Below, piece by piece: positions 12,028 through 40,431 of a stretch of DNA of 64,000 nucleotides. The number at the start of each line of letters is the position of its first letter. Position 1 is the first letter of the stretch. The translations under genes and the position numbers were made by a program. This DNA is from Escherichia phage vB_EcoM-RPN187. Below the pieces are notes generated by a model. The model saw only the letters and a list, made by a program, of their open reading frames with translations. It ran no database searches and was not told where the DNA came from. The stretch is from sequence record OL770074.2. One strand, given 5' to 3'.

Positions 12028-12498
12028 TTAATCATGTTTCCACACCCCATCGGTATTTGACCAAAGTCGCTGATTATCTGATCCTCGCCACAGTTTTTTG
12101 GTCGGAAGATTTTTCTCATACTTCCCATCAATAATAACATCAACATATTTAAGCATTTCTAGTTGTTTAATATCTTCAAACTTATATCCTGTCCACAACC
12201 AAATGCTTTTATTGGGATAAAGATTTTTTACTGTTTGAACGATGCAATGAACAACATCTCGGTTATCAGGATAGAGAGGGTCTCCTCCAGTTATAGTTAA
12301 TCCTTCTATATAATCGTTATTCAAACATTCAATTAATTGCTCTAGTGTTTCACCCGTAAATGGAATACCATTTCTAGCGTTCCATGTTGATTTATTATAA
12401 CACCCCTCGCATTTATGCAAACAACCTGTAACGAAAAGAACGACCCTGCAACCAGGGCCATTCACAAAATCGCAAGGATAAAATCTATCATAATTCAT
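12028..12498 (-). CDS. nrdG: anaerobic ribonucleotide reductase activase NrdG (radical SAM)
   Basis: 156 aa; CDFVNGPGCRVVLFVTGCLHKCEGCYN cysteine cluster; 4-nt overlap with nrdD. Confidence 0.9.
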   Translation of the reverse strand: MNYDRFYPCDFVNGPGCRVVLFVTGCLHKCEGCYNKSTWNARNGIPFTGETLEQLIECLNNDYIEGLTITGGDPLYPDNRDVVHCIVQTVKNLYPNKSIWLWTGYKFEDIKQLEMLKYVDVIIDGKYEKNLPTKKLWRGSDNQRLWSNTDGVWKHD

Positions 12499-14312
12499 TG
12501 GTGTTTAACCCTATGCATGATTTCTTTATTTTTGCCGAGATTAAATCCGCGTTCGTTCGGATTTCCAAGATATCCGCATGTTCTTCTTATGGTGTTCATC
12601 TTTTTAGGATCAGTTTCTCCACAAACTGAACAAACAAATCCGTTTTCAGTAGGAGTCATTTCATGGGTACTTCCGCACGTAAAACATTTATCTACTGGCA
12701 TATTAACACCAAAATAATCTAAATGTTGTGCAGCATAATCCCATACAGCCTCAAGACCTTTTAGGTTATTTTTCATATCAGGAAGTTCAACATAAGAAAT
12801 GTGACCACCTGTCGCAATGAAATGATATGGCGCTTCACGAGAAATCTTTTCAAATGGAGTAATATTTTCTTCTACTGAAACATGGAAACTATTAGTGTAC
12901 CAGCCTTTATCAGTAACATCTTTTACACTTCCATATTTTTCTGTATCAAGTTTACAGAAGCGATAACAAAGGTTTTCAGCAGGAGTAGAATACAGGCTAA
13001 AAGCAAAACCGGTTCTTTCAGTCCACTGCTTAAGACGAGCATTCATTTTAGTCAAAATTTCCTGTCCAATATCACGTCCGACAAGAATATTCAATTCGTG
13101 AATACCAACGTATCCTAAAGACACCGAACTTCTACCGTTTTTAAATAACTCAATTATGTCGTCATCAGGTTTAAGACGAACCCCGAATGCACCTTCTTGG
13201 TAAAGAATAGGAGCAACAGTAGCTTTAACTCCTTTTAAGGAACTAATTCTACACATCAATGCTTCAAAACACAAATCCATTCGTTCATTGAACAATTCGG
13301 CAAATTTCTGTTCATTGAACTGTGTTCCAATATAAGAATCTAATGCAATACGAGGAAGATTCAGTGTTACAACGCCAAGATTATTACGTCCATCAAGAAT
13401 TTCATTACCAGTCGAATCTTTCCATACGCTCAAGAAACTGCGGCAACCCATTGGAGAAACAGGAACAGATGAACCGGTGATAGCTTTATTATTCTTAACT
13501 GAAATAATATCAGGATACATTCTTTTGCTTGCGCATTCTAAAGCAAGCTGCTTAATATCATAGTTCGGATCGTCTTTATAAAGATTAACACCCTCTTCAA
13601 CAAACATAACAAGTTTAGGGAAAATAGGAGTTATCCCATCGCGTCCAAGGCCTTTAATACGATTTTTCAGAATTGCTTTCTGAATCATTCGTTCAGTCCA
13701 GTCAGTTCCCGTACCAAACGTAATTGTTACAAAAGGCGTTTGTCCGTTTGAACTAAAGAGAGTATTTACTTCATATTCATACGCTTGGAATGCATCGTAT
13801 ACATCTTTTTCTGTTTTAGATTGGGCATAATTCAACGCATCAGCGATTTGCCATTTTTCTGCATCCTCAATATGTTTTGCATAGGTGCGTTTAACATAAG
13901 GAGAAAGAACTTTATCGACATTCGCAAATGTAGTTCCACCATACTGATGCGAAGCAACCTGTGCAGTAATTTGCGCCATAATTGCAGTAGCAACACCGAT
14001 TGATTTAGGAGTTTCAATCTGTGCATTACCGAGCTTAAATCCGTTCTCAAGCATTCCTTTTAAATCTACTAAACAGCAATTAGTAAACGGAAGAGCAGGG
14101 GAATAATCAATATCGTGCACGTGAATAATTCCGCTTTCATGCGCTTTCATAATAAAAGACGGGACCATATTTTTGGCAATGTGCTTAGACACAATACCAG
14201 CCATAAGGTCCCGTTGAGTTGGAAAAACACGAGAATCTTTATTAGCATTCTCGTTTAAAAGGTCTTTATTAGTTTTATGAATCAATCCTTCAATTTCTTT
14301 TTCAATTGTCAT
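12495..14312 (-). CDS. nrdD: anaerobic ribonucleoside-triphosphate reductase NrdD (no intron)
   Basis: 605-aa uninterrupted ORF; C-terminal Zn site CFTCGSTHE...CSVCG and glycyl-radical motif RRTCGYLGNP. Confidence 0.92.
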   Translation of the reverse strand: MTIEKEIEGLIHKTNKDLLNENANKDSRVFPTQRDLMAGIVSKHIAKNMVPSFIMKAHESGIIHVHDIDYSPALPFTNCCLVDLKGMLENGFKLGNAQIETPKSIGVATAIMAQITAQVASHQYGGTTFANVDKVLSPYVKRTYAKHIEDAEKWQIADALNYAQSKTEKDVYDAFQAYEYEVNTLFSSNGQTPFVTITFGTGTDWTERMIQKAILKNRIKGLGRDGITPIFPKLVMFVEEGVNLYKDDPNYDIKQLALECASKRMYPDIISVKNNKAITGSSVPVSPMGCRSFLSVWKDSTGNEILDGRNNLGVVTLNLPRIALDSYIGTQFNEQKFAELFNERMDLCFEALMCRISSLKGVKATVAPILYQEGAFGVRLKPDDDIIELFKNGRSSVSLGYVGIHELNILVGRDIGQEILTKMNARLKQWTERTGFAFSLYSTPAENLCYRFCKLDTEKYGSVKDVTDKGWYTNSFHVSVEENITPFEKISREAPYHFIATGGHISYVELPDMKNNLKGLEAVWDYAAQHLDYFGVNMPVDKCFTCGSTHEMTPTENGFVCSVCGETDPKKMNTIRRTCGYLGNPNERGFNLGKNKEIMHRVKHQ

Positions 14313-15861: not shown

Positions 15862-16121
15862 TTAAAATATTCTCGCAGTTGGTCAAATCCACCAATGTGA
15901 CTTCCGTCAGGAGCAAACACTTGAGGCATAGTCAATCCGACTTGTGATTCACGTCCAAGCTTAACCAGAAGCTCAGCAATTTTCTCATCATCAAAAACAC
16001 CTTTTTCTGGCATAACATTAATGAATTCAAATGGCTGTTTCTTAACAGTCAGCAATCGTTTCGCATTATCGCAATAAATGCATTTATGAATAGTAGAGTC
16101 ATACCCATACACTTTAAACAT
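15858..16121 (-). CDS. nrdC: thioredoxin/glutaredoxin NrdC
   Basis: MFKVYGYDSTIHKCIYCDNAKRLLTVKKQPFEFINVMPEKGVFDDEKIAELL... matches recalled T4 NrdC; ATG at 16119-16121. Confidence 0.85.
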   Translation of the reverse strand: MFKVYGYDSTIHKCIYCDNAKRLLTVKKQPFEFINVMPEKGVFDDEKIAELLVKLGRESQVGLTMPQVFAPDGSHIGGFDQLREYFK

Positions 16122-16527
16122 TATTTTTCCTTTCATCAATTAAATATGCAATGCCAAATACAATACATGTAATAAAACCTGTGATACAGATAGAAACCAA
16201 CAACACTGTACCAAAGAACCAAATCAAGTTATCTTTAGTAGTTTGTTTGATATCCATCTCACGAATTTCTATAGCTATCGTATCACCTTTATTAAGAAGC
16301 GTATAAAACGATGGTGATACATGCCTGTCAAAAACTCGTCCTTGTTCATCTTTATAAACTGCAATAAATTCTAATTTAGAATATTTTCCTGTAGATTGAC
16401 CTGAGATTAATTCTACTACCTCCACAGGAATTACTTTAGTTTCCATGTAAGTATTCTGGCTGTTCCAAATGAATGGAATGATGGCAAAAACTAAAGCTGT
16501 AATAAAACAACGAAGGCTATATCTCAT
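16114..16527 (-). CDS. hypothetical membrane protein (two TM helices flanking a soluble domain)
   Basis: N-terminal and C-terminal hydrophobic helices; ATGA-type overlap with next ORF. Confidence 0.45.
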   Translation of the reverse strand: MRYSLRCFITALVFAIIPFIWNSQNTYMETKVIPVEVVELISGQSTGKYSKLEFIAVYKDEQGRVFDRHVSPSFYTLLNKGDTIAIEIREMDIKQTTKDNLIWFFGTVLLVSICITGFITCIVFGIAYLIDERKNNV

Positions 16528-16832
16528 TATAATGTTCTCTCAAATTTGTGGAAGCATTTACGGCATTTCAATTTCAAGTTATCAGTGGTCCAGTTAACCA
16601 GTTGGACTTGGATAGTTCCACATTCCGGACATGGATGTTTTGCTGCCGATTTGGCAGCATTTTCACGTCGTTCAACCATTTTCATTATTTCGTTCCATGC
16701 CGGAGGAACGAACTCTTCTTCACCGTGGATTTTATCTCGCTGAACAAATTCAATCTTTGAACTATCGTCGATAAACTTAACCAAGCTGTGATTAGTGCTC
16801 ATGTCAATATCCTCTAAAAGACGTAGTTTCAT
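16527..16832 (-). CDS. hypothetical zinc-ribbon protein (101 aa)
   Basis: CPECG...CRKC pair of CxxC motifs. Confidence 0.45.
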   Translation of the reverse strand: MKLRLLEDIDMSTNHSLVKFIDDSSKIEFVQRDKIHGEEEFVPPAWNEIMKMVERRENAAKSAAKHPCPECGTIQVQLVNWTTDNLKLKCRKCFHKFERTL

Positions 16833-17782
16833 TATAAAACCTCAATGGCATTTCGTAAACCATCCGCTTTCGCATTCAGAGCTTTTAACGATTTAGTTTT
16901 TTCTGCAATCTGGGCTTCGACTTCTTTCAGTCGAGATTTGAGATATTCGCGTTCTTCTCTTAAATTATCAACTTTTTCTACTTTAGGTTCTTTAATAGGC
17001 TTAGGTTTATACGTATTAGGGTTCTTCAGTTTAATTAGAATGTGTGAACTGTACAGCATTGAACCATTATCTTCGGTTTCGTCATACATTTCCACTACGT
17101 CCATCATCTCCACCATCGTGCAGAGTTTATAAGACAACGAACGAATAGTTTTGTTGTGCTTATTAATTTCTTTAGAGTTCATGGTGCCTAGATTACGCGA
17201 GTAGTAATAAGGAACCTGGATATCAATTGTCAATGATGCGTTACCATTACCAGTTGGTTTGAATACTGCAGTAACCCAATCTTTAACATGAACTTTATTT
17301 GTACGACCATCGCCACCTGTGAATAATTTACGAGAATGTTTAAAAAGCATATTCACTTGGTTATTGAATTCACAAGCAAATTTATCAGCAAATTTAGTTT
17401 CAGGAATGGTAGATAACCAATCAGCCAAGTAGGTCTTTTTAACATCGTTAACAATAGTAAATTCAACCAAATCGGTTATAGATGTCGCAGTTTTAATGAA
17501 GCTCGGCTTCATAAAGTTTTTAATGTTATCGCGAGCTACAGTAGAAGATAATAAACGAGAACGTTTGAACCATTGAAGCAGTGTCCCTAATGAATGAGAA
17601 TACGCGTTTTGAGTATCTTTACAGATATGATTTTCTTGGCCTGTGTATGTACCAAAATCGCGAAGAATGCCACTTACTACAACTCGGTGTGGAACATCAA
17701 ATCCTAATGATCCAGAAGCACGTTGGGCATGAACGTTAGCGATAAGACCTGCAAAATAATCAATGTAATGTGAACGTGTCAT
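16832..17782 (-). CDS. hypothetical protein (316 aa) with C-terminal coiled coil
   Basis: Long ORF with own early promoter; C-terminal 45 aa have a heptad-like Lys/Glu pattern. Confidence 0.5.
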   Translation of the reverse strand: MTRSHYIDYFAGLIANVHAQRASGSLGFDVPHRVVVSGILRDFGTYTGQENHICKDTQNAYSHSLGTLLQWFKRSRLLSSTVARDNIKNFMKPSFIKTATSITDLVEFTIVNDVKKTYLADWLSTIPETKFADKFACEFNNQVNMLFKHSRKLFTGGDGRTNKVHVKDWVTAVFKPTGNGNASLTIDIQVPYYYSRNLGTMNSKEINKHNKTIRSLSYKLCTMVEMMDVVEMYDETEDNGSMLYSSHILIKLKNPNTYKPKPIKEPKVEKVDNLREEREYLKSRLKEVEAQIAEKTKSLKALNAKADGLRNAIEVL

Positions 17783-17810
17783 AATATTTTCCTCTCGTTA
17801 AGATAGAAAG

Positions 17811-17840
17811 ATTATACTCCAACCATCCTTGGTTGTAAAC
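17811..17840 (-). promoter_or_regulatory. early promoter (GTTTAC-N17-GTATAAT) with hairpin CAACC/GGTTG
   Basis: Minus strand: GTTTACAACCAAGGATGGTTGGAGTATAAT, then GAGAGGAAAATATT-ATG. Confidence 0.55.
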
Positions 17841-17844
17841 TGAT

Positions 17845-18777
17845 TTATGATTTTAATGCATTCATTGCGTTAAAAAGTTTAGAGTACTGCAACTGGAGCT
17901 TGGTGACTACTTGTTGAGCATCACGAAGCTTAGCTTGTGCTTTGTCAAGTTCAACAGACAGTTGGTCCACAGTGCCTTTGATTTGATTATAATAGTAATC
18001 TTCTGCAGGAAGAAGACCGTTAGAGATTTCCAGTTTAGTCGACGGTGTGCCATTAAACATAACAGGTTGTGCTGAAGCCGCATTAATCTTACCGATAGTC
18101 GGGGCGACAATAATTGACGCTTCGAACGTTGCATTTTCCTTTTTAAGATTTTTATAATATTCAGAGTCTTTGTGCCACCATGGTGCAGGAACCTTTTTAC
18201 CAATAGATACACGAGCCTGGATAGCGATATGGCCCTTATTCTTGATAGGGTCGATAATATTAAGCTCACGAGAATAAATTGCTTTAATCTGGTGGATATT
18301 ATCACCTAACACTTCCAACGCTTGGTGGAATACACGAGCAACGTTATCATTCTTAGGTTTATACGTAAGAGTGAACTCGTTCTCACTGATAACCATGATT
18401 TCTAACTTATCGTAAGTATATTTCAAATGTTTCATGTTAATTGCTTGAGGACGAATACGAGAAGCAATGGCCATCAAATTGTTAAGGTTATTCCGGAACT
18501 GCTTAGCGAAATATTGTCCTTCACCGCCAATACAAAAATTACGAAGTTTCTGTTTGGCTAATAAACGGCTGAACTCACCATTTTTAATGAACTCTTTAAC
18601 GGGTGTGTTAGTAACGCATTCAAATTGAGTAAACTTACGAGAAGTAATCCCATAATATGAACAGATTTCCTCAATCTCTTCAGGAGTCTTTACAGGCATA
18701 CGGATAGGATTAGGACCTGGGGTATATGCGTTCGAGGTAAATTCTTTGATAAGTTCTCTACGTGTAATAGAAGCCAT
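17845..18777 (-). CDS. hypothetical protein (310 aa) with C-terminal coiled coil
   Basis: Long ORF with own promoter; C-terminal heptad-like segment. Confidence 0.5.
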   Translation of the reverse strand: MASITRRELIKEFTSNAYTPGPNPIRMPVKTPEEIEEICSYYGITSRKFTQFECVTNTPVKEFIKNGEFSRLLAKQKLRNFCIGGEGQYFAKQFRNNLNNLMAIASRIRPQAINMKHLKYTYDKLEIMVISENEFTLTYKPKNDNVARVFHQALEVLGDNIHQIKAIYSRELNIIDPIKNKGHIAIQARVSIGKKVPAPWWHKDSEYYKNLKKENATFEASIIVAPTIGKINAASAQPVMFNGTPSTKLEISNGLLPAEDYYYNQIKGTVDQLSVELDKAQAKLRDAQQVVTKLQLQYSKLFNAMNALKS

Positions 18778-18803
18778 TTTATATTCCTCATGTTGAAAAA
18801 TTT

Positions 18804-18832
18804 ATTATACTCCAACCATCCTTGGTTGTACA
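18804..18832 (-). promoter_or_regulatory. early promoter, near-identical copy of the 17811-17840 element
   Basis: Plus-strand string ttatactccaaccatccttggttgta repeated at 17812-17837 and 18805-18830. Confidence 0.5.
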
Positions 18833-19828
18833 TCATTCCTTAAGAAGTTTTACTACTTGAATAAGATTAGCTCGTTCTGTTTTATTTTTACCGTTTAAGC
18901 CTGCTAATCGTGAGATTTCATCGTCAGTCTGTTGAATAGTTACATTAAGTTCGTTAATCAAAGCTTCAAAGTATTTGATTTGCTCAGCATGTTTTGATTC
19001 AAATTTCTGAACCGGAATAACGTCTTGGTTCAGTTCATCAATAAGGTCTTTAAGAGCATCTTCTTGATTGATATCATATTCAACTTCTTTTATTTCTTCA
19101 ACGAGCTCGTCTTTATATCTAACGTCTTTTAGTCCTGGTGCTGGTCCTGAAATCTCTTCTTTAAGAGTACAAACATATCCAATACGGTATCCAATGCCGT
19201 CTCGCTTGATATCAACTTCGTCAATAAATCCACAATGTTTAAGACCAGAGCCGATTAAGTCAAAATATCCTTGACGACGTCCTTCAAACGTTACACGAAC
19301 TACTAAGACAGTTTTACCTGCAACCTTTTGAAGCTCACATTTATAAAAGTTTGTTGAACCTGAATAACGTGGATGAGTTTTAAAGTTCATCTGACGATCT
19401 AGGCCCATTTGTAAGCGTGCTGATACGGCCATAAAACGTGTTTGGTTCTCGTTAAGATGAGCAACAATCCATTTCAAAGGCATTTTACACTGTTCACGTC
19501 CGAACAAATCAGTACGTCCTAGATTACGCAGGATGTTGTTAGAGTTAATCATCGACAGAACGTTAAGTTTATTCAGCGCGCTGAAGATTCCATCGGCCAT
19601 TGATTTTCCGTAACCTTTACACGCTTTAATAAGCGCTCGCGGTAGATTAGTATAGATTTCAGACGGCATATGAAAATCAAATTTACTAGTCAGTAATTGA
19701 TGAACTTGGATAGCAATTTGCTCATAATTAAGTGCTCTGCGATCATTATGGTCTTTAAACCACACTTTAATCTGTGAAGCACATAAACCGTTAATTTCAT
19801 GTTTTACCGCATCAGATGTAATGCTCAT
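18833..19828 (-). CDS. hypothetical protein (331 aa) with acidic C-terminal coiled coil
   Basis: Long ORF; N-terminal globular part, C-terminal Glu/Lys-rich helix. Confidence 0.5.
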   Translation of the reverse strand: MSITSDAVKHEINGLCASQIKVWFKDHNDRRALNYEQIAIQVHQLLTSKFDFHMPSEIYTNLPRALIKACKGYGKSMADGIFSALNKLNVLSMINSNNILRNLGRTDLFGREQCKMPLKWIVAHLNENQTRFMAVSARLQMGLDRQMNFKTHPRYSGSTNFYKCELQKVAGKTVLVVRVTFEGRRQGYFDLIGSGLKHCGFIDEVDIKRDGIGYRIGYVCTLKEEISGPAPGLKDVRYKDELVEEIKEVEYDINQEDALKDLIDELNQDVIPVQKFESKHAEQIKYFEALINELNVTIQQTDDEISRLAGLNGKNKTERANLIQVVKLLKE

Positions 19829-19890
19829 AACTATTTCCTCAGATTGAATTGGAACTCAAAACCATTATAACCCGTCCTTGGGTAAAGCGT

Positions 19891-20418
19891 TTATGCGTGA
19901 ACCGTCTTTAAACGTTCTTCAAATTTCCGAAGAGTACTAATACGTTCTGCTTTCTGTTTTGTATAGTTTGCAATACGTTCTGAAGTGAGAGCGTATCGTT
20001 CATTTACTGTTTCTTTCATGAAGTCAGGGATTTCACGAGAAGCTTTAATTTCATCAAACTTATCGAGTACTGCCTGGTCTTCAGTGATTAAATTTTCGTA
20101 CATCTCGATATCTTTCTTGATGAAGTCGATATCTTCCTGGGTTACTTTGGATAAACGAGATGCTTTATCCTTTTTGTACTGCTCGTTAGTTTCACGAGAC
20201 CAGAATAATGTACGTTTTTTGTTAGTGTTTTTGTAGACTTCCACAATTCCAACTGAATCAATGATAGCAATCCAATTCCAGCGAGATTTGAAAATCTGAC
20301 CTCCGTCCACGGTAATCTCGTTACCATAAGCAACGTCATTAAAGAACTTGCTTTGTGCTTCAGATTTAAATTTACCGTCGTTATAATTTACCAGGTTGAA
20401 AATATCTTTAGCGTTCAT
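19891..20418 (-). CDS. hypothetical protein (175 aa)
   Basis: Coding-strand ORF with own early promoter. Confidence 0.5.
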   Translation of the reverse strand: MNAKDIFNLVNYNDGKFKSEAQSKFFNDVAYGNEITVDGGQIFKSRWNWIAIIDSVGIVEVYKNTNKKRTLFWSRETNEQYKKDKASRLSKVTQEDIDFIKKDIEMYENLITEDQAVLDKFDEIKASREIPDFMKETVNERYALTSERIANYTKQKAERISTLRKFEERLKTVHA

Positions 20419-20445
20419 GTTTTACCTCCAGTAGTTGATAGGTCT

Positions 20446-20474
20446 ATAATAACACAACCATAGACCTTGTAAAC
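20446..20474 (-). promoter_or_regulatory. early promoter GTTTAC-N17-TATTAT inside palindrome GGTCTAT...ATAGACC
   Basis: Minus strand: GTTTACAAGGTCTATGGTTGTGTTATTATAGACC. Confidence 0.55.
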
Positions 20475-20476
20475 AA

Positions 20477-20764
20477 CTAAAAGAAACTTTTTTCGGTATT
20501 TTTTCCACTGAACCAAACAGACTTCGGGACTTTCTGTAATTTTTCAGATTTAAGTTTCTCTTCCTGTTCTTTCTTATATGCATCCTTGTCGTACTGGAAC
20601 AACTCTAGGGCATTCTTTTGTAGACGGTCTAAGGTAATTAAGGCTTTAGTTTTTCCTTTCAAGGAAGAGTCCTGGCGAACCTCCTCGCTATATTGCATCG
20701 TAGAACTAACCATACGATGAGCATACAGTTCGACTGCGGCTTTAATTTTTTGCATAAAATCCAT
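20477..20764 (-). CDS. hypothetical protein (95 aa)
   Basis: ATG preceded by AAGAGGA. Confidence 0.4.
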   Translation of the reverse strand: MDFMQKIKAAVELYAHRMVSSTMQYSEEVRQDSSLKGKTKALITLDRLQKNALELFQYDKDAYKKEQEEKLKSEKLQKVPKSVWFSGKNTEKSFF

Positions 20765-21904: not shown

Positions 21905-21921
21905 TTCGTTTCGATAGGTCT

Positions 21922-21950
21922 ATAATAACATGTTTAAAGCAAAAGTAAAC
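21922..21950 (-). promoter_or_regulatory. early promoter GTTTAC-N17-TATTAT
   Basis: Minus strand: TGTTTACTTTTGCTTTAAACATGTTATTATAGACC. Confidence 0.5.
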
Positions 21951-21952
21951 AA

Positions 21953-22171
21953 TTATTTGCGACGAGATTTTTTGGTAAGAGGTTGAAAGAACACTGCTTT
22001 ACCTGCTGGGGTTAAGGTGACTCGTAACGCATTACCGATTCCCAAGGATGCTTTAACTAGACCTTTAGCTTTCAGTTCACCGAATGCTTGACGTTGGTCT
22101 GCATCACGAGTGTTAACCATAAGACCTTTATCACCAGCTTCACGAATCATTTCTAACATTTTGGTTTTCAT
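21953..22171 (-). CDS. hypothetical small basic protein (72 aa)
   Basis: ATG at 22169-22171 preceded by GAGGAGAA; MKTKMLEMIREAGDKGL... Confidence 0.4.
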   Translation of the reverse strand: MKTKMLEMIREAGDKGLMVNTRDADQRQAFGELKAKGLVKASLGIGNALRVTLTPAGKAVFFQPLTKKSRRK

Positions 22172-22199
22172 TTTGTTCTCCTCTTGTTTTGATAGGTCT

Positions 22200-22228
22200 A
22201 TAATAACATATCCTAAAAGCATGTACAC
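22200..22228 (-). promoter_or_regulatory. early promoter (GTGTAC-N17-TATTAT)
   Basis: Minus strand: GTGTACATGCTTTTAGGATATGTTATTATAGACC. Confidence 0.45.
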
Positions 22229-22251
22229 TACTTTTTTAAAAATATTTTAAC

Positions 22252-40077: not shown

Positions 40078-40127
40078 TTATTATCCAATGAGAGCATTAT
40101 ACTCTGCTCTCAAGAGTTTGTACACTT
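40078..40127 (-). promoter_or_regulatory. early promoter with hairpin, copy of the 9520-9550 element
   Basis: Plus-strand string ttattatccaatgagagcattatactctgctctcaagagtttgt repeated at 9506-9550 and 40078-40122. Confidence 0.5.
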
Positions 40128-40374
40128 ATTTGTACGAATTAATAATCTCTTCCATTTTATCCAGAACATGGATATCGATTATACGAGGAAGTGCCGAAAG
40201 ATTAGAACCGTCGAAAGATTTAAGGTCTTCCAAAATAATATTTTCAATGGCCTTTAAAGCTTCCGCAGATTCTGATGCAGAATTAAATTCAGGAATTTCT
40301 CCAAAAAGACGTAAGAATGAACCAAAGTATTCTGCGGCGATTTCTTTAGCTTGTTCGATATCAGACTTAAACAT
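40126..40374 (-). CDS. hypothetical acidic protein (about 82 aa)
   Basis: ATG with GAGGAAAA SD (MFKSDIEQAK...). Confidence 0.4.
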   Translation of the reverse strand: MFKSDIEQAKEIAAEYFGSFLRLFGEIPEFNSASESAEALKAIENIILEDLKSFDGSNLSALPRIIDIHVLDKMEEIINSYK

Positions 40375-40431
40375 TTTGTTTTCCTCATTTGTTGGTGGAG
40401 TAATCATATCACCATCCTTGGCGTTTGTACA

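Follow-up and report, generated by a model that had tools for sequence, protein, structure and literature searches.

The analysed window is a stretch of 64,000 nucleotides from Escherichia phage vB_EcoM-RPN187 (sequence record OL770074.2), and the subject of this analysis is a run of three consecutive open reading frames (ORFs), ORF1 to ORF3, which correspond to nrdC.3, nrdC.5 and nrdC.6 of the T-even phages. The region around the three ORFs showed 96–98% DNA identity over 4.1 kb to Mosigvirus genomes, and on this similarity the source of the window is assigned to Mosigvirus, as an RB69/JS09-like T-even coliphage. The whole nrdC-region block lies on the minus strand of the window. The annotated gene order in JS09 is nrdD, gene 49 (endonuclease VII), pin, nrdC, a gene for an NrdC.7-like membrane protein, nrdC.2, nrdC.3, nrdC.5, nrdC.6, nrdC.8, nrdC.9, nrdC.10 and nrdC.11. 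Our sequence comparisons indicate that ORF1, ORF2 and ORF3 are ancient tandem paralogues, in one family with T4 NrdC.4 and a set of single-copy relatives; confidence in this relationship is high for ORF2 and ORF3 and good for ORF1. The features of the locus are collected in Table 1.

Table 1. Features of the nrdC.3–nrdC.6 locus and its immediate neighbours (window positions; aa, amino acids).
Feature	Position	Strand	Description
nrdC.2	16527..16832	-	101-aa zinc-ribbon protein, two CxxC pairs; ATG overlaps ORF1 stop (TAATG)
ORF1	16832..17782	-	316 aa, orthologue of T4 NrdC.3; phrog_1435; newer Pfam id PF26897
ORF1 C-terminal heptad helix	16835..16984	-	aa 267-316, ends LRNAIEVL; heptad score
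ORF1 superfamily core	17069..17614	-	~aa 57-238; SRLLSxxxAxDxxKNF helix, NxxxMLFKHSRKLxxGGDxR helix, then strands and helix; merged-profile alignment
Early-promoter/hairpin cassette before ORF1, repeat copy A	17811..17839	-	TTTACA-17-TATAAT
ORF2	17845..18777	-	310 aa, Mosigvirus NrdC.5; Pfam DUF7235 (PF23882), phrog_2351
ORF2 C-terminal heptad helix	17848..18006	-	aa 258-310, ends LFNAMNALKS; heptad score and AlphaFold2
ORF2 superfamily core	18184..18654	-	~aa 42-198; FSRLLAKQKLRNF ... FRNNLNNLMAIASRI, then strands and helix; bridge vs NrdC.5 N-domains 83-89%
Early-promoter/hairpin cassette before ORF2, repeat copy B	18804..18832	-	TGTACA-17-TATAAT
ORF3	18833..19828	-	331 aa, orthologue of NrdC.6; phrog_2257; newer Pfam id PF26899
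ORF3 C-terminal long helix	18839..19000	-	aa 277-330, ends LIQVVKLLKE; heptad score and AlphaFold2
ORF3 superfamily core	19169..19618	-	~aa 71-220; LSMINSNNILRNLG ... NENQTRFMAVSARLQMGLDRQMNFKT, beta-hairpin 162-179, helix 186-199
Upstream element of ORF3	19864..19889	-	CGCTTTA-13 nt-TATAAT and same CCAAGGACGG hairpin core
nrdC.8 orthologue	19891..20418	-	175 aa, 82% identity to T4; directly upstream of ORF3

Identity of the three ORFs

The three ORFs were present on the minus strand as the first-pass annotation of the window had described them, each with a GAGG-type ribosome-binding site 7–9 nucleotides before its ATG. That annotation had called them unassigned and would have taken clear homology to characterised T4 ORFs as a refutation. 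Comparison found just such homology: the three are orthologues of T4 nrdC.3, nrdC.5 and nrdC.6, under which names related genomes annotate them as conserved hypothetical proteins. By sequence they are thus local orthologues of known T4 ORFs and no orphans, and what survives of the earlier label is that these ORFs are mostly uncharacterised. The genes are therefore not novel, which leaves the idea of a family uncontradicted.

A search with hidden Markov models (HMMs) aligned residues 1–316 of ORF1 with positions 1–333 of the 334 in phrog_1435, at an expectation value (E) of 1e-104. ORF1 shared 57% identity with T4 NrdC.3, and phrog_1435 was matched by both T4 NrdC.3 and T4 NrdC.4. ORF2 matched DUF7235 over profile positions 1–307 of 307 with 373.4 bits (E = 1.3e-111), membership in this family being defined by a whole-protein HMM score above the 30-bit gathering cut-off, and T4 NrdC.5 is also a member (421 bits, E = 5e-126). 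ORF2 was the sole member of the three, as neither ORF1 nor ORF3 matched the DUF7235 HMM at E ≤ 1. With 24% identity, ORF2 is a remote homologue of T4 NrdC.5. A tblastn search with ORF2 retrieved just 132 Mosigvirus records and did not reach Tequatrovirus, a homologue search from ORF2 by itself yielded no relative below 79% identity, and one with a mixed alignment still missed the T4-type NrdC.5 and NrdC.4 proteins. ORF3 gave a full-length HMM match to phrog_2257 (E = 2.2e-127; T4 NrdC.6, 6.4e-126) and was about 25–38% identical to T4 NrdC.6.

Scans against NCBIfam and PADLOC returned nothing, or coiled-coil noise below threshold. The proteins showed no similarity to defence proteins or to any known anti-defence fold, and none of the solved structures resembled the family proteins. 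A side observation concerns the T4 reference record, in which nrdC.6 (locus record L002, 11067–11894) encodes 275 amino acids, of which the tail is aberrant and the C-terminal helix is missing. NrdC.6 has 295–296 amino acids, helix included, in T4T, in other isolates of T4 and in every Tequatrovirus relative. The short version is probably a frameshift or sequencing error in the record.

Paralogy of NrdC.3, NrdC.4, NrdC.5 and NrdC.6

Pairwise BLASTP among ORF1, ORF2 and ORF3 showed no similarity. Family profiles were built from 15 phage loci and compared with hhalign, whose probabilities are quoted throughout as percentages. At full length, the NrdC.3 and NrdC.4 profiles matched at 97.6% (E = 3e-12) and those of NrdC.4 and NrdC.5 at 83.7% (E = 8e-6). 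The direct comparison of the NrdC.3/4/5 alignment with the NrdC.6 alignment was weak (8.8%), so that a bridging family was needed. Such a family emerged when 1.84 billion representative proteins were searched exhaustively with an HMM of NrdC.6; only 15 hits were obtained, and the family is among them. It consists of four distant full-length proteins of 288–345 amino acids (P0167, P0169, P0170 and P0172), which match phrog_26858, phrog_2257 (NrdC.6) and phrog_2351/DUF7235 (NrdC.5) and whose relatives occur in Kanagawavirus and in Edwardsiella and Pectobacterium T4-like phages. The full-length bridge profile matched NrdC.6 at 99% (E = 7.5e-19) and NrdC.5 at 97.8% (E = 9e-13).

Since coiled coils can inflate profile scores, each sequence was shortened by its last 65 residues and the comparisons were made again. 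The bridge then matched NrdC.6 at 97.4% (E = 1e-11) and NrdC.5 at 83–89%, while NrdC.3 and NrdC.4 matched at 97.7%. With the coiled coil removed and the N-domain profiles merged, NrdC.3 and NrdC.4 together matched NrdC.5, the bridge and NrdC.6 at 94.3% (E = 9.6e-8) over 132 columns. None of 32 control comparisons against NrdC.8, NrdC.10, NrdC.11 and NrdD exceeded 1.6%. The earlier suggestion that three divergent proteins form one family is supported by these profile matches.

The same grouping was recovered from the window itself. An HMM built only from the four foreign bridging proteins found ORF3 (6e-15) and ORF2 (1.8e-8) and no other among the 113 window ORFs, and an HMM of T4 and Dhakavirus NrdC.4 had ORF1 as its sole match in the window (E = 1e-12). 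A Foldseek search of viral predicted structures with the ORF3 model listed NrdC.6 orthologues first, followed by full-length proteins of 300–335 amino acids from IME523, PM2, Acj9, Acj61, phage 133 and Mineola (E from 1e-7 to 2e-4), and so connected ORF3 with proteins of the bridging family. In the family alignments, the shared motifs fell at the same positions and in the same order. NrdC.8 was considered as a further member and rejected, as it was matched by neither the bridge nor the NrdC.4 HMM and its control profiles stayed at or below 1.6%.

PHROGs and Pfam hold NrdC.3, NrdC.5 and NrdC.6 under separate accessions. In the databases and papers searched, which did not include a look at Pfam clans, we found no statement that NrdC.3, NrdC.4, NrdC.5 and NrdC.6 form one superfamily descended from a single gene. 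Previously known are the genes themselves, DUF7235, the concept of promoter-early stem-loop (PeSL) cassettes and, for T4 nrdC.5, the anti-Dsr1 role, to which we return below.

Protein architecture and structure models

Alignments and models indicate that the proteins are built on a common plan. An N-terminal segment specific to each family is followed by a conserved core of about 130–200 residues, then by a hypervariable and probably disordered linker, and finally by a homologous C-terminal amphipathic helix of about 50 residues. The core is made up, as far as the sequences indicate, of two motif-bearing helices followed by a small sheet and a helix; in general form the two motifs are [LF]S-x3-A-x2-x-L-x-N-F and N-x3-[LF]-[LM]-x2-[AS]-[RK]-L-x2-G. 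Read by eye in the alignments, the first helix carries LS-x-x-N/A-x-x-I/L-L/K-x-N-F/Y/L, and the second N-x3-L/F-L/M-A-x-x-A/S-R-L-x-x-G followed by M/I-x-F-K. With the NrdC.6 family taken as a whole, conservation was highest, and column entropy lowest, in the shared core. Variation within Mosigvirus was concentrated in the linker preceding the C-terminal helix of ORF2 and ORF3.

The C-terminal heptad helix that had been noticed in each protein was upheld. A crude heptad score placed the top segment at the C-terminus of all three (ORF1, 267–316; ORF2, 258–310; ORF3, 273–311), each above the 95th percentile of shuffles, and AlphaFold2 predicted unbroken C-terminal helices in ORF2 (258–309) and ORF3 (277–330). 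The ORF3 model had a predicted local distance difference test score (pLDDT) of 70.8, with a confident all-helical N-domain (1–145), a beta-hairpin and helix (162–199), a low-confidence linker (about 211–277) and then the long C-terminal helix. In the ORF2 model, only the C-terminal helix reached a pLDDT of 57–82. Beyond the shared motifs, the predicted succession of secondary-structure elements agreed between ORF2, whose model has a pLDDT of 40.6, and ORF3.

Promoter-hairpin repeats and cassette shuffling

An exact direct repeat of 27 nucleotides, TACAACCAAGGATGGTTGGAGTATAAT on the coding strand, was found at 17811–17837 and 18804–18830, before ORF1 and ORF2. It had been described earlier as a near-identical promoter/hairpin copy of 26 bp; the repeat is there, and it is identical and one nucleotide longer. 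Each copy spans a sigma70-like promoter with a 17-nucleotide spacer, which agrees with the consensus at 11 of 12 positions for ORF1 and 10 of 12 for ORF2, and the spacer encloses a 6-bp hairpin, CAACCA-AGGA-TGGTTG. The element upstream of ORF3 has the wrong spacing for sigma70 and is kept before nrdC.6 in Mosigvirus and Dhakavirus. It is probably a MotA-type middle promoter, because its layout fits the TGCTT box followed by a -10 box given in the PeSL paper. A scan of the minus strand found no terminator-like site between the three genes, so that read-through transcription is also possible. The case for each gene having its own promoter is thus one of position and conservation.

The hairpin core CCAAGGAYGG occurred 12 times in the window at no more than one mismatch, against 3.2 expected, and the hairpin motif stands before family genes of three genera, Mosigvirus, Tequatrovirus and Dhakavirus. 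Judged by eye, the stems vary yet stay complementary (CAACC/GGTTG, CCACA/TGTGG, AGCCA/TGGCT, TACCA/TGGTA and CATCC/GGATG). In phage ESCO47, which lacks nrdC.5, the left half of the spacer between nrdC.6 and nrdC.3 corresponds to the copy before ORF2 in the window and the right half to the leader before ORF1. This chimeric spacer points to a crossover inside the promoter-hairpin repeat, and on the sequence evidence the loss of nrdC.5 at the repeat is PeSL-type cassette shuffling.

Other rearrangements and copies were seen as well. Phage moha (locus record L014, 5699–6000) has an extra hydrophobic ORF of 66 amino acids between nrdC.6 and nrdC.5, after which a duplicate of about 25 nucleotides of the nrdC.5 3' end is fused to the promoter-hairpin repeat; this arrangement looks like a recombination scar of cassette insertion. 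A further promoter-hairpin copy was seen roughly 20 kb from the locus, at 40393–40425 on the minus strand, ahead of a small ORF of about 82–93 amino acids (40126–40407). It reads TGTACA-AACGCCAAGGATGGTGA-TATGAT, its CCAAGGATGG core is exact, and it suggests that the motif represents a wider class of early-promoter cassette in the phage. A second early-promoter cassette family, GTTTACA...TATTATAGACCTATCAA, of 44–59 nucleotides and 70–80% identity, was observed on the minus strand at 20435–20478, 21911–21954 and 22189–22232. Its copies precede nrdC.8, nrdC.10 and a small ORF (21953–22228), and a copy is also found before nrdC.8 in T4 and Dhakavirus.

Divergence, copy number and selection

The three ORFs are among the proteins of the region that have diverged most from T4, with identities of 57% (ORF1), 24% (ORF2) and 25% (ORF3) against 89% for gp49, 87% for NrdC and 82% for NrdC.8. 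Within Mosigvirus, the ratio of nonsynonymous to synonymous substitution rates (dN/dS) was 0.20–0.40 for ORF2, the highest in the region, 0.13–0.21 for ORF1 and 0.04–0.16 for ORF3. Family copy number varied: T4 has four members, the window and Dhakavirus have three each, ESCO47 has two and Kanagawavirus has one; the window phage and Mosigvirus lack nrdC.4. The single member of Kanagawavirus IME523 occupies the same locus, between nrdC and nrdC.10. The first-pass annotation had spoken of a diversifying family, and this description holds only in the sense of strong divergence, copy-number variation and the raised dN/dS of ORF2; the gene-wide ratios, all below 1, give no evidence of positive selection.

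Neighbouring genes

The overlap of the nrdC.2 start with the stop of the last family member was also present in T4, ESCO47, IME08 and Kanagawavirus IME523, and it thus spans Mosigvirus, Tequatrovirus, Dhakavirus and Kanagawavirus. In IME523, the gene that follows the single family member (locus record L015, 6744–7034) is 38% identical to NrdC.2 (E = 1e-20). NrdC.2 and the last family member may therefore form a conserved gene pair with functional coupling. No description of NrdC.2 as a conserved, translationally coupled partner was found in the databases or papers searched.

Between nrdC and nrdC.2, the window contains a predicted NrdC.7-like membrane protein (16114–16527, minus strand) which is 41% identical to T4 NrdC.7. 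The T4 gene is located between nrdC.6 and nrdC.8, and this difference in site indicates that the gene moved within the block. The window nrdD (12495–14312, minus strand) is uninterrupted and encodes 605 amino acids; in T4, nrdD is interrupted by a group I intron with I-TevII, and mobC is present beside nrdG.

Function and the anti-defence reading

On cells that carry dsr1, the SIR2-domain defence gene of ECOR17, T4 deleted for nrdC.5 does not plate, and plasmid expression of nrdC.5 by itself is enough to rescue it (Srikant et al. 2022, PMC9391042). A 2025 preprint (10.1101/2025.11.20.689424) reports that Septu is inhibited by T4 nrdC.1 and Druantia III by Bas37_0203. An exact-sequence look-up placed Bas37_0203 in the 90% identity cluster of T4 NrdC.8; it was therefore rejected as a member of the NrdC.3/4/5/6 family and is NrdC.8. 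According to the tables of the same preprint, T4 nrdC.3, nrdC.4, nrdC.5 and nrdC.6 tolerate transposon insertions and are non-essential in the laboratory. The accessory-gene paper PMC12373910 makes no mention of these genes. The anti-defence reports for nrdC.1, nrdC.5 and nrdC.8, together with this dispensability, suggest that the block behaves as an anti-defence island, and by analogy Mosigvirus NrdC.3, NrdC.5 and NrdC.6 probably constitute a small arsenal of anti-immunity proteins.

We propose that the family members would act as stoichiometric binders that neutralise host immune proteins, each with its own specificity. Target specificity would reside in the variable N-terminal and core regions, and the coiled coil may oligomerise the protein and so provide avidity against oligomeric defence proteins. 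ORF2 would be the candidate anti-Dsr1 member, with ORF1 and ORF3 aimed at other targets. The genes would be expressed early or middle from their own promoter-hairpin cassettes, and homologous recombination between the repeated cassettes would add, remove and swap family members between phages. As a whole, the explanation that we favour is that these are tandem-paralogue T-even accessory genes encoding anti-immunity binders and shuffled by PeSL-type cassettes, to which we give a probability of about 0.6.

Several observations weigh against this explanation. The link of the NrdC.3/4 branch is weaker with single-family profiles, the trimmed NrdC.4 profile matching the bridge at 66% and NrdC.5 at 54%, and the shared fold is supported by sequence profiles and not by structure comparison. 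The AlphaFold2 model of ORF2, built from a mixed NrdC.5 and NrdC.3 alignment, is unusable at its overall pLDDT of 40.6. Promoter-like sites are not enriched in the region (30 found, 31.3 expected from shuffles), so that the case for the promoters lies in their position and their conservation across genera and not in consensus match. RNA folding of the intergenic segments gave small hairpins whose stability did not significantly exceed that of shuffled sequence. None of the three ORFs has a gene-wide dN/dS as high as 1. At 24% identity between ORF2 and T4 NrdC.5, the anti-Dsr1 activity may not be conserved; an anti-defence phenotype has not been reported for NrdC.3, NrdC.4 or NrdC.6; and the oligomerisation and direct binding of the family proteins are steps that we purely infer.

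A bolder version of the favoured explanation was also considered. In it, nrdC.3–nrdC.6 would be an integron-like, self-expressing array of coiled-coil anti-defence paralogues, each tuned to a different immune system (Dsr1 in the case of the NrdC.5 type), descended by tandem duplication from one ancestral gene paired with NrdC.2 and exchanged between T-even phages at promoter-hairpin repeats. We put this forward tentatively, as a picture that is possible but has the odds against it.

The alternative that survives best accepts the family and denies it an anti-immunity role. The proteins would be host-takeover or phage–phage competition factors, such as modulators of host enzymes or agents of superinfection or co-infection exclusion, and the effect on Dsr1 would be indirect, for example through removal of its trigger. 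It is consistent with this that a single member, T4 NrdC.5, has a phenotype, which is genetic rather than biochemical, that the neighbouring gene pin encodes a host-protease inhibitor and no immune antagonist, and that the comparisons reported above revealed no likeness to defence proteins or known anti-defence folds. However, nrdC.1, nrdC.5 and nrdC.8 of the island have anti-defence phenotypes, laboratory strains can be infected without the family genes, and their rapid divergence and copy-number variation fit an arms race. We regard this alternative as unlikely.

A less probable alternative is that the paralogues co-assemble through their C-terminal helices, possibly with NrdC.2, into one hetero-oligomer with a single function. 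The C-terminal helix is the part that profiles of different families cross-recognise, it ends in a common motif of the L-x-N-A-x3-L-K type, and nrdC.2 overlaps the stop of the last member in all four genera named above. Such an assembly is hard to reconcile with the gain and loss of single members (nrdC.5 absent from ESCO47, nrdC.4 from Mosigvirus, one copy in Kanagawavirus), or with the sufficiency of plasmid-borne T4 nrdC.5 alone against Dsr1, and we consider it improbable. That the three proteins are unrelated, with length and C-terminal helix coincidental and the profile matches arising from coiled-coil composition, would suit the empty pairwise BLASTP and the weak direct profile pairs of NrdC.3, NrdC.5 and NrdC.6, but is very improbable given links that survive the trimming of the last 65 residues, aligned motifs in the same order and positions, controls at or below 1.6% and synteny with the single-copy relative.

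Most T-even early genes are without an assigned function, and T4 nrdC.5 is the only gene of the nrdC.3–nrdC.6 block for which a connection to a particular immune system has been made. If the proteins share one scaffold, the three or four 'hypothetical proteins' per phage, in hundreds of genomes of therapeutic-type coliphages, would become a single testable family with a domain logic of variable recognition part, conserved core and oligomerising helix. This would guide screens for host targets, help to explain host-range differences among T4-like phages, and provide a concrete case of promoter-cassette shuffling that carries counter-defence genes.

Comparison with known systems

The closest characterised relative is T4 NrdC.5, with which ORF2 shares its Pfam family over the full length, its size, its position in the nrdC–mobD block, its early context and the C-terminal coiled coil. 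The two differ in sequence, at 24% identity, and the anti-Dsr1 phenotype belongs to the T4 member (PMC9391042). ORF1 and ORF3 resemble T4 NrdC.3, NrdC.4 and NrdC.6, proteins of 31–39 kDa from the nrdC–mobD region, in their PHROGs and gene order. NrdC.4 is present in T4 and absent from the window phage, where the NrdC.7-like gene is also placed elsewhere, and the acidic linker of ORF3 is longer than that of NrdC.6 in Tequatrovirus and Dhakavirus.

PeSL cassettes of T4-like phages comprise an early promoter, TTTACW-N17-TAYWAT, and a stem-loop (Comeau et al. 2014, PMC4122927; Arbiol et al. 2010, PMC2839356). As in these cassettes, a repeated promoter and stem-loop in the window flank non-essential genes in a plastic region, and an insertion or deletion between related phages has its junction in the repeat (ESCO47). 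The copy before ORF3 resembles the middle-promoter variant. The arrangement differs in that the window hairpin sits within the promoter spacer, whereas the PeSL stem-loop lies beside the promoter. The window hairpin has 5–6 bp and a conserved AAGGAY loop, and its shortness and lack of a U-tract make a terminator function doubtful.

For the proposed action of the family, a mechanistic model is offered by DSAD1, a phage protein that blocks the defence-associated sirtuin DSR2 by direct binding (PMC10973363, PMC10981675). The likeness is a functional analogy only, and the target of DSAD1 is DSR2 and not Dsr1. The dmd-tifA-adfA island of T4, which acts against toxin–antitoxin systems, is similar as a cluster of early, dispensable counter-defence genes. 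Its genes are small and mutually unrelated, whereas nrdC.3–nrdC.6 are three or four adjacent genes that, by their profiles, are paralogues.

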